Source: Escherichia coli (lineage in GTDB: Bacteria; Pseudomonadota; Gammaproteobacteria; Enterobacterales; Enterobacteriaceae). Taken from it: a stretch of 64,000 nt of DNA. Shown in pieces: positions 3,915-38,561 of this stretch. Below the pieces are notes generated by a model. The model ran no database searches. It saw only the letters and a program-made list of their open reading frames with translations, and had not been told where the DNA came from. How positions within the stretch are numbered: position 1 is the stretch's first letter; each line of letters starts with the position of its first letter. The DNA lies in NCBI RefSeq assembly GCF_036507355.1, contig NZ_AP027877.1. One strand, written 5' to 3'. The translations under genes and the position numbers were made by a program.

Positions 3915-3930
3915 CCCCCAGAAACATCAA

Positions 3931-3951
3931 CGGCTCCTGAATCAGGAGCCG
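3931..3951. terminator. Hairpin between convergent ytfL and ytfK, probably bidirectional
   Basis: cggctcctg-aat-caggagccg, 9-bp perfect stem. Confidence 0.55.
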
Positions 3952-3956
3952 TCTTA

Positions 3957-5167: not shown

Positions 5168-6079
5168 TCATACTGGTAACGCTAGTTGCTCTTTTTTAAA
5201 CGCCTCAATGGTCGATTTATATTTCTCGCAAATCTTTTCTTTGGTAATATCACTATCTGCGGCCAGATTCGCACTTACTATCGCATCCACTTGTTCGGCT
5301 AATTCGACTTGTTGGCAACCTGCATTAACCAGAAAATTATAAATAAGAGAGTAATCTTCATCCTCCAAAACAACAGAGGAACCATTACGAAAACGTTCAT
5401 CCCCTCCATAGATTTTAAGCGCAAAGCCCAAAGATTCTATGACTATGGCAAAATTATCATCAATTATTTTTTCGTAAATATACCATCCATCGCATTCTTT
5501 AATTCCACCTCCTGGTATTTGGAGTTCAAATTTACCCCGTTTTAATTTGCTTACTATATCCTCCAATAAGGCATAACCTAAAGACACGTCACCAATCGCC
5601 TGGTGAATATAACCTTTAATCCTTTTCGGTATGTCAGACTGTTTTTTCTGCAGAATATCCCAGGCATACAATCGTCTGTTTTGTTCTAACGGAAATTCAC
5701 GGTTTTTGAAATCCATGAATGAGTTATACTCATTTATTGTTATGGGGATTTCTTCGTATTCAAATCCACTGCCTCGCAATGTCATTGTATATTCGGCACC
5801 GTTATCTTTAAGGCTGAAACTGATAAGAAACTTATCCATGGCTTTAACAGTTTCATTTTTTGATGAAAGCACTTGATAACTACTTTTATCAATCTGAGTT
5901 GCGCAACGAAAGAACTCCCGCAAAGTTAACAGGCTATCATAATTTGAAATCCAATCTTTTTTATTAAATGCATGCTGGATATTGTTAAAAAAATTGTTTG
6001 AATGTGTTTTTGTATACGAAGACTTTACAAATAACTCCACCGCACCAATAAAATTATTGTGTCTGATCCTGGGTAACAT
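5168..6079 (-). CDS. ytfI: Uncharacterised protein YtfI (low-GC gene)
   Basis: ORF track 303 aa; AT-rich coding and upstream region; no motif recognised. Confidence 0.8.
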   Translation of the reverse strand: MLPRIRHNNFIGAVELFVKSSYTKTHSNNFFNNIQHAFNKKDWISNYDSLLTLREFFRCATQIDKSSYQVLSSKNETVKAMDKFLISFSLKDNGAEYTMTLRGSGFEYEEIPITINEYNSFMDFKNREFPLEQNRRLYAWDILQKKQSDIPKRIKGYIHQAIGDVSLGYALLEDIVSKLKRGKFELQIPGGGIKECDGWYIYEKIIDDNFAIVIESLGFALKIYGGDERFRNGSSVVLEDEDYSLIYNFLVNAGCQQVELAEQVDAIVSANLAADSDITKEKICEKYKSTIEAFKKEQLALPV

Positions 6080-6290
6080 ATGACAACCTTATTTTATTTG
6101 GTTACTTTATGTCGCCATTAAATATCTCATTATAAAAGTAAACTATCAAAAAACGCTCATTATTAAAATGTAACTTATTAGCAATTGAATTTTTGCACTT
6201 TAAATACAATCTCTTTTTATTTATAACTTTTTAGGTTGGGAGAAATCAGGATGGCAGAATCAGGAAATACACTGTTTCTGCCATCTGAAT

Positions 6291-11388: not shown

Positions 11389-11495
11389 TTAATTAAAGTG
11401 GCATCCTCCCGCATCCTCTCTGATAATGACGGGATGCCGGGAGCAATCATGTCTGCTTCCTGAACTTTCTTCTGACAGACCAATGGATGCCAGTA

Positions 11496-12461
11496 ATGAT
11501 TAGCGGCGTGCTGTACGCCCTGTTAGCAGGGTTGATGTGGGGGCTTATTTTTGTCGGGCCGTTGATCGTGCCGGAATACCCGGCGATGTTGCAGTCGATG
11601 GGGCGTTATCTGGCGTTAGGGTTAATTGCGCTGCCCATTGCCTGGCTGGGACGCGTGCGTCTGCGTCAGTTGGCGCGTCGCGACTGGCTTACCGCTTTGA
11701 TGCTCACTATGATGGGCAACCTCATTTATTACTTCTGCCTTGCCAGTGCCATTCAACGTACTGGCGCGCCTGTTTCCACGATGATTATCGGCACCCTGCC
11801 GGTGGTCATTCCTGTCTTTGCCAATCTGCTTTATAGCCAGCGCGACGGCAAACTCGCGTGGGGAAAACTCGCCCCGGCACTGATTTGTATTGGCATCGGC
11901 CTGGCGAGTGTGAATATTGCTGAGTTAAACCACGGACTCCCCGATTTTGACTGGGCACGTTATACCTCTGGCATCGTGCTAGCGTTAGTTTCCGTGGTCT
12001 GCTGGGCATGGTATGCCCTGCGCAACGCCCGCTGGCTGCGGGAAAATCCCGACAAACATCCGATGATGTGGGCAACAGCGCAGGCGCTAGTCACACTGCC
12101 GGTTTCACTTATCGGCTATCTCGTCGCTTGTTACTGGCTGAATACGCAAACGCCGGACTTCTCCCTACCCTTTGGCCCCCGTCCGCTGGTGTTTATTAGT
12201 CTGATGATTGCGATAGCCGTGCTTTGCTCATGGGTTGGCGCACTCTGCTGGAACGTCGCCAGCCAGCGATTACCGACAGTGATTCTCGGGCCGCTGATTG
12301 TTTTCGAAACGCTGGCAGGTTTGCTGTACACCTTTTTACTCCGCCAGCAAATGCCGCCGCTAATGACGCTGAGCGGTATCGCGCTGTTAGTGATTGGCGT
12401 GGTCATCGCGGTCAGAGCAAAACCAGAAAAACCTTTAACTGAATCTGTCTCAGAAAGTTGA
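11496..12461 (+). CDS. ytfF: DMT/EamA-family inner membrane transporter
   Basis: ORF track 11487..12461; polytopic hydrophobic protein; start taken at the fourth codon, uncertain. Confidence 0.85.
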   Translation: MISGVLYALLAGLMWGLIFVGPLIVPEYPAMLQSMGRYLALGLIALPIAWLGRVRLRQLARRDWLTALMLTMMGNLIYYFCLASAIQRTGAPVSTMIIGTLPVVIPVFANLLYSQRDGKLAWGKLAPALICIGIGLASVNIAELNHGLPDFDWARYTSGIVLALVSVVCWAWYALRNARWLRENPDKHPMMWATAQALVTLPVSLIGYLVACYWLNTQTPDFSLPFGPRPLVFISLMIAIAVLCSWVGALCWNVASQRLPTVILGPLIVFETLAGLLYTFLLRQQMPPLMTLSGIALLVIGVVIAVRAKPEKPLTESVSES

Positions 12462-12519
12462 CACGCTGGCAGTGAGTTAAATAAGCCTCTGCTACGTAAG
12501 GGTTATAGCTTTTGCTTTA

Positions 12520-12542
12520 AAGATGCATTTAAAATACATCTT
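12520..12542 (+). promoter_or_regulatory. Probable NsrR operator in the ytfE promoter
   Basis: Near-palindrome AAGATGCATTTAAAATACATCTT about 27 nt upstream of the ytfE ATG; ytfE is a known NsrR target. Confidence 0.6.
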
Positions 12543-12568
12543 ATCTTATTAAGAATGAGGTATCAGCT

Positions 12569-13231
12569 ATGGCTTATCGCGACCAACCTTTAGGTGAACT
12601 GGCGCTCTCTATTCCTCGCGCTTCAGCTCTGTTTCGTAAATATGATATGGATTACTGCTGTGGCGGTAAGCAGACGCTGGCGCGCGCGGCGGCACGTAAA
12701 GAACTGGATGTTGAGGTCATTGAAGCTGAACTGGCAAAGCTCGCTGAACAACCGATTGAGAAAGACTGGCGTAGCGCCCCGCTGGCAGAAATCATTGACC
12801 ATATCATCGTGCGCTACCACGATCGTCACCGCGAGCAGTTGCCGGAGCTGATCCTGCAAGCGACTAAAGTCGAGCGCGTTCACGCCGACAAACCGAGCGT
12901 GCCAAAAGGGCTGACAAAATACCTGACTATGCTGCATGAAGAGCTTTCCAGCCACATGATGAAAGAAGAGCAGATCCTCTTCCCGATGATCAAACAAGGC
13001 ATGGGCAGCCAGGCAATGGGGCCAATCAGCGTAATGGAAAGCGAGCACGATGAAGCGGGTGAACTGCTGGAAGTGATCAAACACACGACCAATAACGTCA
13101 CACCGCCGCCGGAAGCCTGCACCACCTGGAAAGCGATGTATAACGGCATTAATGAACTGATTGATGACCTGATGGATCACATCAGCCTGGAAAACAATGT
13201 ACTGTTCCCACGCGCGCTGGCGGGTGAGTGA
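12569..13231 (+). CDS. ytfE: Iron-sulfur cluster repair di-iron protein (RIC)
   Basis: ORF track 220 aa, [33 protein letters not shown]... Confidence 0.95.
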
Positions 13232-14688: not shown

Positions 14689-14996
14689 GTTTTTTTCTTC
14701 CTGTACCTGTCTGTGTTGTTCAGGCTCTACGGCCTTTAGTCAGTCTATGATACGACGAATCTGTATCGGGACTCATCGATATTAGGTAACAATACGCGGG
14801 ATGAATACTAAGATTTAGATCTAATGTTAATTTTATGTTTAAAGTGAGTGTCATATCACGGTGATAACGCGAAACAGCTCACAAAAATACACGCTTACGG
14901 GGTCTTTGCAACACAAAATAGCGCCGTTTGGCAAACTGAAGGGTTTATTGCTGAATGCCTGCTCCCCTCTGGTTCGAGGGGAACAGAATGCGCTGC

Positions 14997-17131: not shown

Positions 17132-17926
17132 ATGACATTACCAACCACTATTTATTCATTTCCTGCATATTCACCCCGTTTTTCGTCCACCGACAAACCA
17201 GTAAAATTAAAAATTCATCAATACGCACGCGCTACATTACTTTCAAATCGTGGAAGAGATCATAATTGCGATGGCAGACGTACTGTTGAGATCCACAAAC
17301 TAGATCTCTCAGACTGGCAAGCATTCAATAAGCTAGCGACGAGGTGTAATGCTTACGATGGAATAACAATGAAGGGTGATAATTCTTTTGGATGGAACCA
17401 TGAAGCTACATTAGATAATATTCACGCCCAGAAATACAATAAAGCTTACGCGGGTGCGCGGTTAACCGCAGAACTGAAATATTTATTGCAAGATGTCGAA
17501 TCCTTCGAACCCAACAGTAGATACACAATACACGAGGTTGTTTTGGGACCTGGTTATGGTACTCCAGACTATACCGGCCAAACGATAGGATACGTTGTAA
17601 CCCTTCCTGCCCAAATGCCTAATTGCTGGTCATCTGAACTACCAACAATCGATCTTTATATCGACCAACTTCGCACTGTTACAGGCGTTTCTAATGCCCT
17701 CGGATTCATCATTGCTGCATTGCTAAACGCGTATTCTGATTTACCCCATGATTTGAAAATTGGTCTGCGTTCCTTATCAAGTTCAGCCGCAATCTACTCG
17801 GGTTTGGGTTTTGAGCGAGTGCCGCAGGAGCGAGACATCAGTTGCGCTCATATGTATCTAACGCCAGCAAACCATCCTGACTTATGGACACAAGAGAATG
17901 GTGAATGGATCTACTTGCGAAATTAA
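17132..17926 (+). CDS. yjfZ: Uncharacterised protein YjfZ
   Basis: ORF track 264 aa; preceded by about 350 bp of AT-rich DNA; weak RBS. Confidence 0.8.
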   Translation: MTLPTTIYSFPAYSPRFSSTDKPVKLKIHQYARATLLSNRGRDHNCDGRRTVEIHKLDLSDWQAFNKLATRCNAYDGITMKGDNSFGWNHEATLDNIHAQKYNKAYAGARLTAELKYLLQDVESFEPNSRYTIHEVVLGPGYGTPDYTGQTIGYVVTLPAQMPNCWSSELPTIDLYIDQLRTVTGVSNALGFIIAALLNAYSDLPHDLKIGLRSLSSSAAIYSGLGFERVPQERDISCAHMYLTPANHPDLWTQENGEWIYLRN

Positions 17927-17946: not shown

Positions 17947-17976
17947 GCAAAACGCCGACCAGTGGTCGGCGTTTTT
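17947..17976. terminator. Hairpin terminator between convergent yjfZ and rplI
   Basis: aaaacgccgacc-agt-ggtcggcgttttt: perfect stem flanked by A-run and T-run. Confidence 0.7.
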
Positions 17977-20847: not shown

Positions 20848-21701
20848 TATGCCGCCTCCACCATGCCCGCTTTCGCCATGCGCGCTTTCACCCAATCACG
20901 CGCTTTCGCCACTTCTGCCGCCGGGTCTTCCGCCGTTTCGCTCCACATCTCAATCAGGTATGGCCCGCAATAGCCACTCTGTTTGAGCGTTTCGAAACAA
21001 CGTTCGAAATCCACTACACCTTCGCCAAACGGCACGTTTTTGAAGACGCCCGGTTTGGTGTCTTTCACATGCACCGCGACGATATGCCCGATTCCGGCCT
21101 GCAACTCCATCTGCACGTCGTTATCCCACGCCGACAGGTTGCCGATATCCGGGTAGAGCTGGAACCACGGATTGTTGAGATAGTGCGCGTAGCCCAGCGC
21201 CTTGCTGATGGAGTTCATCAACGGATAATCCATGATCTCCATCGCCAGCGTCACCTGCGCGCGGCTTGCCATCTCAACGCTCTCTTTCAGGCCGTCACGG
21301 AAACGACGACGCGTTTCGTTATTGGCTTCCTGATAGTAAACGTCATAGCCCGCCAGCTGGATCACGCGAATACCGACATCCTGGGCGAACTGGATAGCTT
21401 TACGCATAATCTCCAGCCCCTGCGCCCGCACCGCGTCATCTTCACTGCCCAGCGGGAAACGACGATGAGCAGAAAGGCACATGGACGGCACGCGCACGCC
21501 GGTTTCAACAATCGCATTGACCAGCGCCAGACGCTGCTCGCGGCTCCAGTCGAGGCGCGACAGGCGCTCGTCCGTTTCATCTACCGACATCTCGACAAAA
21601 TCGAAGCCCAACGTTTTTGCCAGTTGCAGGCGTTCCAGCCAGCACTCCCCGGCGGGGAGCGCTTTTTCATAGATGCCAAGCGGGATTTGTTTGGACAACA
21701 T
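20847..21701 (-). CDS. ulaE: L-ribulose-5-phosphate 3-epimerase
   Basis: ORF track 284 aa; stop overlaps ulaF start (TAATG). Confidence 0.95.
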
Positions 21702-34413: not shown

Positions 34414-34539
34414 ATATTATTCCATATAGATTAAGTTTAAATATTAATAAAATGAATATTTGCAATACGTAATTATCTTACCAGCTATAGACAAAAAAAA
34501 ACCATCCAAATCTGGATGGCTTTTCATAATTCAGAGGAA

Positions 34540-37931: not shown

Positions 37932-38357
37932 TCACTCCACCAGCAATAATTTATAAAGCGGTTGATTCTCTTCAACCAAATCGGCAAGCGTGTAGTTATC
38001 CAGTTCCGTAAGAAAACTTTGCACGGCCTTAGAAAGCGCCTGTTTCAACCGACAGGCAGGTGTAATGTGGCAAAACTCACTGCTGCAATTCACCAGCGAT
38101 AAGGGCTCCAGCTCGCGCACCACATCACCAATACGTATCGCACTCGCCGGTTTACCCAGGCGAATGCCGCCATTTTTTCCACGAACAGCAGTCACGTAGC
38201 CGGCACGACTAAGTTGATTGATTATTTTGACCATATGATTACGGGAGACGCCGTAGACGTCAGTCACTTCAGAAATACTGGTCATCCGCCCTTCTGGCAA
38301 TGACGCCATGTAGATCAGCGCACGTAATCCGTAATCAGTGAAACTCGTTAACTGCAC
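37932..38357 (-). CDS. nsrR: NO-sensing Rrf2-family repressor
   Basis: ORF track 141 aa; overlaps rnr start by 4 nt. Confidence 0.95.
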
Positions 38358-38561
38358 ATCAACCTCAAAAGGGAAATCGGGAAAAAATACATTTATATTG
38401 ATGATAAACCAGCCACAAGCTGTGTCGCTAATTTATTTCAGTTCGGGGAAGGAAAAAAGCGAGGATTTAACACTGTGTCGGATAGCGTAATGGCTTAACC
38501 GACACAGCAATGTATCACACTGTTAGCCCGGCAGGCAAAATATCTGCCAGGCGTACCAGAA

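Follow-up and report, generated by a model that had tools for sequence, protein, structure and literature searches.

The window, as the whole stretch of 64,000 nucleotides analysed here is called, is part of the E. coli chromosome and is collinear, in reverse orientation, with positions 4.38–4.44 Mb of MG1655; the region was matched in 5416 of 5426 complete E. coli genomes. The genes ytfF (11487–12461) and ytfE follow one another on the plus strand and are separated by a gap of 107 bp, and it is in this gap, 59 nt downstream of the ytfF stop codon and on the same strand, that a palindrome of 23 bp is found (Table 1). This places the palindrome in the promoter region of a gene for nitrosative stress. 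The product of ytfE matched the YtfE equivalog family over its full length with 416.7 bits, and the start codon annotated in RefSeq is the same ATG as the one used here. Three matches of the ytfF–ytfE junction fell on records labelled as plasmids, and some complete E. coli genomes carried the junction in two copies; the explanation could be replicons with a wrong label, or a segment that has been duplicated or mobilised.

Table 1. Coordinates of the features discussed in the text, given as positions of the window.
Feature	Coordinates	Strand	Evidence or remark
Conserved upstream block AAAGGG[G/T]TATAG; window reads TAAGGGTTATAGC	12497..12509	.	11-23 bp upstream of the operator
NsrR operator, 23-bp 11-1-11 inverted repeat	12520..12542	.	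sequence; matrix score 30.66/31.64 bits; K-12 identity; found in 80/80 other species
Left half-site AAGATGCATTT	12520..12530	+	equals the published 11-bp ytfE half-site; PMC5320621 Table 2 lists AAGATGCATTT twice
Right half-site, minus-strand reading AAGATGTATTT	12532..12542	-	one base off the ideal half-site
TAAAAT at the operator dyad, the preferred -10 candidate	12530..12535	+	suggested by conservation
Alternative -10-like hexamer TATCTT	12542..12547	+	possible reading; only 4/6 in E. coli
ytfE Shine-Dalgarno GAGG	12557..12560	+	8 nt before the ATG; GAGGTA conserved across species
ytfE (RIC), di-iron Fe-S cluster repair protein, the regulated gene	12569..13231	+	NCBIfam NF008221; RefSeq annotation
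nsrR, trans-acting Rrf2-family NO-sensing repressor, 141 aa	37932..38357	-	NCBIfam NF008240

Read directly from the window, the palindrome is AAGATGCATTTAAAATACATCTT, an 11-1-11 inverted repeat with the arms AAGATGCATTT and AAATACATCTT placed around the central A12531. The arms are complementary at 10 of their 11 positions, C12526 and A12536 forming the sole mispair, and the initial annotation had thus been correct in describing a near-perfect inverted repeat at 12520–12542. When the repeat is laid over the half-site geometry AAGATGCATTT / AANATGCATTT with a 1-bp spacer, the left arm is identical and the right arm has one mismatch, which is A12536 on the plus strand, where a perfect palindrome has G. 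The ytfE ATG follows 38 nt downstream of the centre of the repeat. The exact 23-mer occurs once in the 64-kb window, and not a single match with three or fewer mismatches was obtained in 100 dinucleotide-preserving shuffles. Repeats of the 11-1-11 type with at least 10/11 complementarity are more frequent in the 64 kb (five, vs. 0.37 on average after block shuffling that preserves composition), and the four besides the one at ytfE are GC-rich. These GC-rich palindromes, perfect or 10/11, include ACGGCTCCTGAATCAGGAGCCGT at 3930–3952, AACGCCGACCAGTGGTCGGCGTT at 17951–17973 and AGCACTCCCCGGCGGGGAGCGCT at 21641–21663; the last two run directly into a T-run, look like intrinsic terminators and have nothing to do with NsrR.

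The published collection of NsrR sites of strain CFT073 made it feasible to score the palindrome with a weight matrix. The matrix was symmetrised and built from 25 of the 27 sites that Mehta et al. 2015 give in Table 4 (PMC5320621), the ytfE site and one of two duplicate sequences being left out of the training. A scan with a curated NsrR matrix had been named in the initial annotation as the way to check its reading, and the site passed this check with 30.66 of a maximum of 31.64 bits, as compared with 12.8 bits for the second-best match in the window, in a test that is not fully independent because the training sites had themselves been picked with the published matrix, to which ytfE contributed. 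The other published sites, when scored leave-one-out, all remained below the operator, with hcp (26.3) as the next best, tehA at 25.4 and hmp at 17.8. The probability of reaching such a score by chance is about 6e-13 per position with the composition of the window and about 1e-11 on an AT-rich background, and the expected number of matches is about 3e-6 to 5e-5 per genome of 4.6 Mb. Two further, independent published descriptions of the motif agreed with this result: the comparative-genomics motif gATGyAT-N5-ATrCATc (Rodionov et al. 2005, PMC1274295) is matched with 0 mismatches, and the RegulonDB-derived consensus taaGatGCatttsarataCayCtt (PMC3035439) with a single mismatch, at the uninformative central base.

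Weak matches to the NsrR matrix, of 11–13 bits, were observed at 5954–5976, 6190–6212, 14810–14832, 17472–17494 and 34438–34460, and matches of at least 12 bits numbered five, where about one would be expected on a uniform background. Mapped to MG1655, three of the weak matches lie inside ytfI/yjfZ, and the others precede cycA by about 120 nt and yjfI by about 20 nt. They were treated as probable noise rather than as real sites, the DNA being AT-rich and three of them being intragenic.

The conservation of the palindrome was followed in the ytfE loci of 80 further species of Enterobacteriaceae, which were fetched via YtfE and gave 81 sequences together with the window; the genera sampled include Escherichia, Enterobacter, Citrobacter, Klebsiella, Raoultella, Kluyvera, Kosakonia and Buttiauxella. 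In all 80 other species the best upstream match to the matrix scored between 23.8 and 31.0 bits, and its centre lay 36–39 nt from the ATG. The mean majority-base conservation was 0.945 in the operator, 0.849 between the operator and the ATG and 0.636 further upstream. Within the operator 15 of the 23 positions are invariant in the 81 sequences, among them positions 1–3, 5, 6, 8, 9 and 11 of the left half-site, and variation is focused on positions 4/20, 7/17, 14 and 21, the same ones at which the matrix is soft. The departures from a perfect palindrome, counted in the 26 distinct sequences, were one-sided in 41 cases and compensated in 3, and this predominance of one-sided changes points to a site for a dimeric protein and not to an RNA hairpin.

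The initial annotation had taken the operator as a confirmation of the ytfE start codon, for which the site alone is insufficient. The assignment of the start rests instead on the GAGG, on the full-length coverage by the protein family, on the agreement with RefSeq and on the constancy of the distance from the operator to the ATG (36–39 nt in 80 species), and it is jointly with this evidence that the operator lends its support.

The position of the promoter relative to the operator is less directly readable. A consensus promoter scan of 12350–12700 called no canonical sigma-70 promoter, and neither of the two −10-like hexamers, which lie 12 bp apart and both overlap the operator, has a good −35 partner, a match better than 2–3 of 6 being absent in most species. 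All 81 orthologous sites have TAAAAT, TAATAT or TATAAT as the hexamer at the dyad. The second base of this hexamer is the central A of the operator, which is invariant in the 81 sequences, whereas the 25 other NsrR sites have A in 10, C in 6, G in 5 and T in 4 cases; that this base is fixed although the NsrR matrix is indifferent to it suggests an extra constraint, such as a −10 element would impose. With TAAAAT as the −10 element, transcription is predicted to start near A12543, which would give a leader of 26 nt and have the operator span −23 to −1. The second hexamer reads TATATT in 67 and TATAAT in 5 of the 81 sequences, and if the TATCTT found in the window served as the −10 element, the start would lie near A12554/12555, with the operator covering about −35 to −13. 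Under either geometry the operator would overlap the ytfE core promoter, as the initial annotation had it. The abstract of Bodenmiller and Spiro from 2006 reportedly states that the repeat overlaps the −10 element, which would fit best with the TAAAAT geometry. Approximately where the −35 element belonging to TAAAAT would lie, at 12510–12517, the sequence is hypervariable, so that a conserved −35 element seems not to be what the promoter depends on.

The presence of two conserved −10-like hexamers within or across the palindrome raised the question of whether the conservation might reflect the ytfE core promoter only, with the symmetry and the likeness to the NsrR motif being incidental, since a palindromic look is frequent in AT-rich promoter DNA. 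The invariant positions are symmetric out to both ends of the repeat (AAG.TG.AT ... AT.CA..TT), far beyond what a −10 element needs, and they extend into the 10 bp that precede the hexamer, a region in which the spacers of sigma-70 promoters carry no sequence constraint. The chance of the matrix score remains minute on the AT-rich background given above, and a ChIP-seq peak has been published on the site (PMC5320621). An explanation by the promoter only is therefore very improbable.

There is, to an equally slight degree, a chance that the main user of the site is a regulator other than NsrR, either another Rrf2 protein such as IscR or one of the other regulators reported for ytfE, Fur and NarP. 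NsrR, IscR and RirA are homologous, ytfE was up 10-fold in a Salmonella fur mutant in a study that also listed a putative Fur motif (PMC3212961), and NarP sites have been predicted upstream of dnrN/ytfE (PMC1274295). A Fur box in the area of the operator and of the block upstream of it was nevertheless rejected, the best match to the 19-bp consensus near the operator being 10/19, which is common by chance and was reached at hundreds of positions in the window. The type-2 sites of IscR carry a CC...GG signature, which was absent from the operator by inspection. As to NarP, the NarL/NarP-like heptamer lies at 12499–12505 and hence outside the palindrome, and the near-maximal score was obtained with a matrix that is specific for NsrR.

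That the palindrome works by folding into a hairpin of RNA or DNA, either as a terminator or stabiliser after ytfF or as a structure in the ytfE leader, and not as a protein site, is scarcely credible, because, in spite of its location shortly after the ytfF stop codon, a moderately T-rich stretch that follows it and a predicted fold with 6+3 pairs, the folding energy is only −4 kcal/mol (z = −1.08, with 29 of 200 shuffles folding equally well), a terminator scan of 12350–12700 was negative, an Rfam match was not obtained, and the pairs 4–20, 7–17 and 10–14 fail to form in 8 to 13 of the 26 distinct orthologous sequences, where one-sided changes outnumber compensated ones as described above.

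The regulator itself is encoded in the same window. The initial annotation had placed nsrR at 37932–38357, about 25 kb away, and this was borne out by a full-length match to NF008240 (292.8 bits, covering 1–141 of the 141 model positions) on the minus strand, where the gene begins with a GTG codon that is preceded by a GAGG 6 nt upstream (38355–38400, minus strand). The levels of NsrR are reported to be limited by inefficient translation of its gene. The ligands of the cluster, Cys91, Cys96, Cys102 and Asp8, are in place, and rnr lies after nsrR. The distance between the operator and nsrR is 25.4 kb and is equal in MG1655; since NsrR is a trans-acting regulator whose targets are dispersed, no meaning is attached to this proximity. 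The matrix scan of the window revealed no NsrR-like site upstream of nsrR, and hence no sign of autoregulation via this motif.

Taken together, the palindrome is almost certainly the operator by which NsrR represses ytfE, as the initial annotation had proposed, and this reading is supported by the matrix score and by the published ChIP-seq peak (PMC5320621). What was established here concerns the sequence, the matrix score, the identity with K-12, the conservation, the fixed position and the intact nsrR gene; the occupancy in vivo, the induction by NO and the dependence of the repression on the repeat are taken from the published papers. Nothing among the results gathered speaks against the binding of NsrR itself.

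For the mode of repression, the following sequence of events is proposed. The NsrR homodimer with its iron-sulfur cluster would bind the 23-bp site with one winged-helix domain on each 11-bp arm. In the preferred geometry the TAAAAT would lie at the dyad and transcription would start about one base past the right edge of the operator, although with either of the two hexamers the bound NsrR would probably exclude the RNA polymerase sterically. Both the exact promoter geometry and the steric occlusion are inferred. NO would then nitrosylate the cluster and cause NsrR to leave the DNA, upon which ytfE, the repairer of damaged Fe-S proteins, would be transcribed. The last steps are consistent with the finding that nitrosylation of the Fe-S cluster destabilises the binding of NsrR to DNA and leads to the derepression of its targets (PMC10783083).

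Apart from the operator, the gap between the two genes contains a second element that is conserved nearly as well. The sequence AAAGGG[G/T]TAT (12497–12507) was found in nearly all of the 81 sequences; the block to which it belongs adjoins the operator and lies outside the NsrR motif. Within the block, AGGGGTA, the complement of the NarL/NarP heptamer, is present in 42 of the 81 sequences, and E. coli has AGGGTTA. The block may be the site of a further, uncharacterised regulator, or an unconventional substitute for a −35 element. Several other readings were tried and rejected. An RNA hairpin involving the GGG of the block was rejected because RNAalifold returned no consensus structure and the pairing probability of the GGG block was 0.66, vs. 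0.60 with shuffled flanks, and only 0.09 in the window itself. By eye, the GG...TTGCT at 12501–12516 was considered as the −24/−12 elements of a sigma-54 promoter, as was, for the block, an IscR type-2 site. Both were dropped because of a misfit in the spacing or in key bases and because the TTGC patch lacks conservation.

The one mispair of the palindrome is a variable position in E. coli. The 23-mer of the window is identical in K-12 (J53), O157:H7, APEC O1 and RM10466, whereas the uropathogenic strains CFT073 and F11 have G in place of A12536, which makes the palindrome perfect; in the matrix the two bases differ by 0.8 bit. A search for exact 90-mer haplotypes among the 5426 complete E. 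coli genomes gave 1746 of the K-12 type, 8 of the window type and 874 of the F11 (G) type, and the allele totals drawn from these exact haplotypes are lower bounds, i.e., at least 1754 genomes with A and at least 874 with G out of 5426. Across the 81 sequences, 38 have A and 43 have G at this position, and the two bases alternate within E. coli as well as between genera. By way of the affinity for NsrR, this alternation may set a lineage-specific tightness of repression and threshold for NO. The most variable stretch, across species and within E. coli, is the 8 bp at 12510–12517 between the upstream block and the operator, for which the variants TTTTGCTT, TTTTGCCT, TTTTGTTT, TTTCAACA and ATTCACCT were found within E. 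coli. It is in this stretch that the window differs from K-12, by a rare T12516 in place of C, 4 nt upstream of the operator, and the exact 90-mer of the window, as counted above, is accordingly confined to the 8 genomes. The idea that the ytfE control region goes beyond the textbook operator, with a −10 element at the dyad, a tuning at 12536 and a role for the block at 12497–12507, is put forward as a tentative and rather doubtful one.

The operator is already known, being the K-12 ytfE NsrR site itself, the reference for a high-affinity site of NsrR, which has been described since 2005–2006 and is contained in RegulonDB-derived matrices, and the present analysis therefore adds little new knowledge. 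Its value is that of an annotation anchor, which identifies the ytfF–ytfE–cycA region of E. coli, and it indicates that the NO-stress circuit, composed of the operator, its target and the regulator, is intact in this strain. Furthermore, the upstream block, the nested −10-like hexamers and the perfect and imperfect alleles could guide the study of how NsrR promoters are tuned, which is of relevance because the ytfE promoter serves as a biosensor for NO, e.g., as an NO reporter in EHEC (PMC7336997).

The closest known system is the ytfE site of K-12, described by Bodenmiller and Spiro 2006 and by Partridge et al. 2009 (both cited in PMC5320621). The 23-mer is base-for-base identical, without any difference inside the site, its distance to the ATG is equal and the neighbours, ytfF and cycA, are the same, and because of this identity the published work on K-12 applies to this exact sequence. 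The binding of NsrR at ytfE was detected in K-12 by ChIP-chip (PMC5320621). A rise of ytfE by 69.6-fold under endogenous NO is given in the same paper, and the repeat has been implicated in the repression mediated by NsrR (PMC1274295). In CFT073 the corresponding site, AAGATGCATTTAAAATGCATCTT (PMC5320621 Table 4), has the same position and the same gene and differs by the G at A12536. ChIP-seq in that strain located the NsrR summit 50 nt upstream of the ytfE start codon with a 9.65-fold enrichment, and the half-sites were mapped 33 and 45 nt upstream of ytfE, the same positions as in the window; the site had the top NsrR score of the genome, with a PatSer ln P of −25.13 at a threshold of −14.28 (PMC5320621).

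The operators of hcp, hmp, ygbA, yeaR and tehA share the 11-1-11 architecture and the half-site consensus with the ytfE site. These other E. coli operators are more degenerate: scored leave-one-out, they reach 17.8 to 26.3 bits as compared with 30.7 at ytfE. FNR or NarL/NarP takes part in the regulation of several. On the structural side, the NsrR of the window is homologous to the Streptomyces NsrR, whose structure is available both for the protein by itself and for its complex with the 23-bp operator (5N07/7B0C, E = 5e-19), and to the IscR–DNA complex 4HF1 (E = 1.7e-9), and the solved chains found by homology included no enterobacterial NsrR–DNA structure. The complexes of Streptomyces coelicolor NsrR with the hmpA1 operator (7B0C) and of E. 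coli IscR with hya (4HF1) have served as the templates for models of enterobacterial NsrR on DNA (PMC10783083). In both, an Rrf2 dimer with winged helix-turn-helix domains binds a pseudo-palindrome of about 23 bp, the sequence of which differs from that of the ytfE operator.
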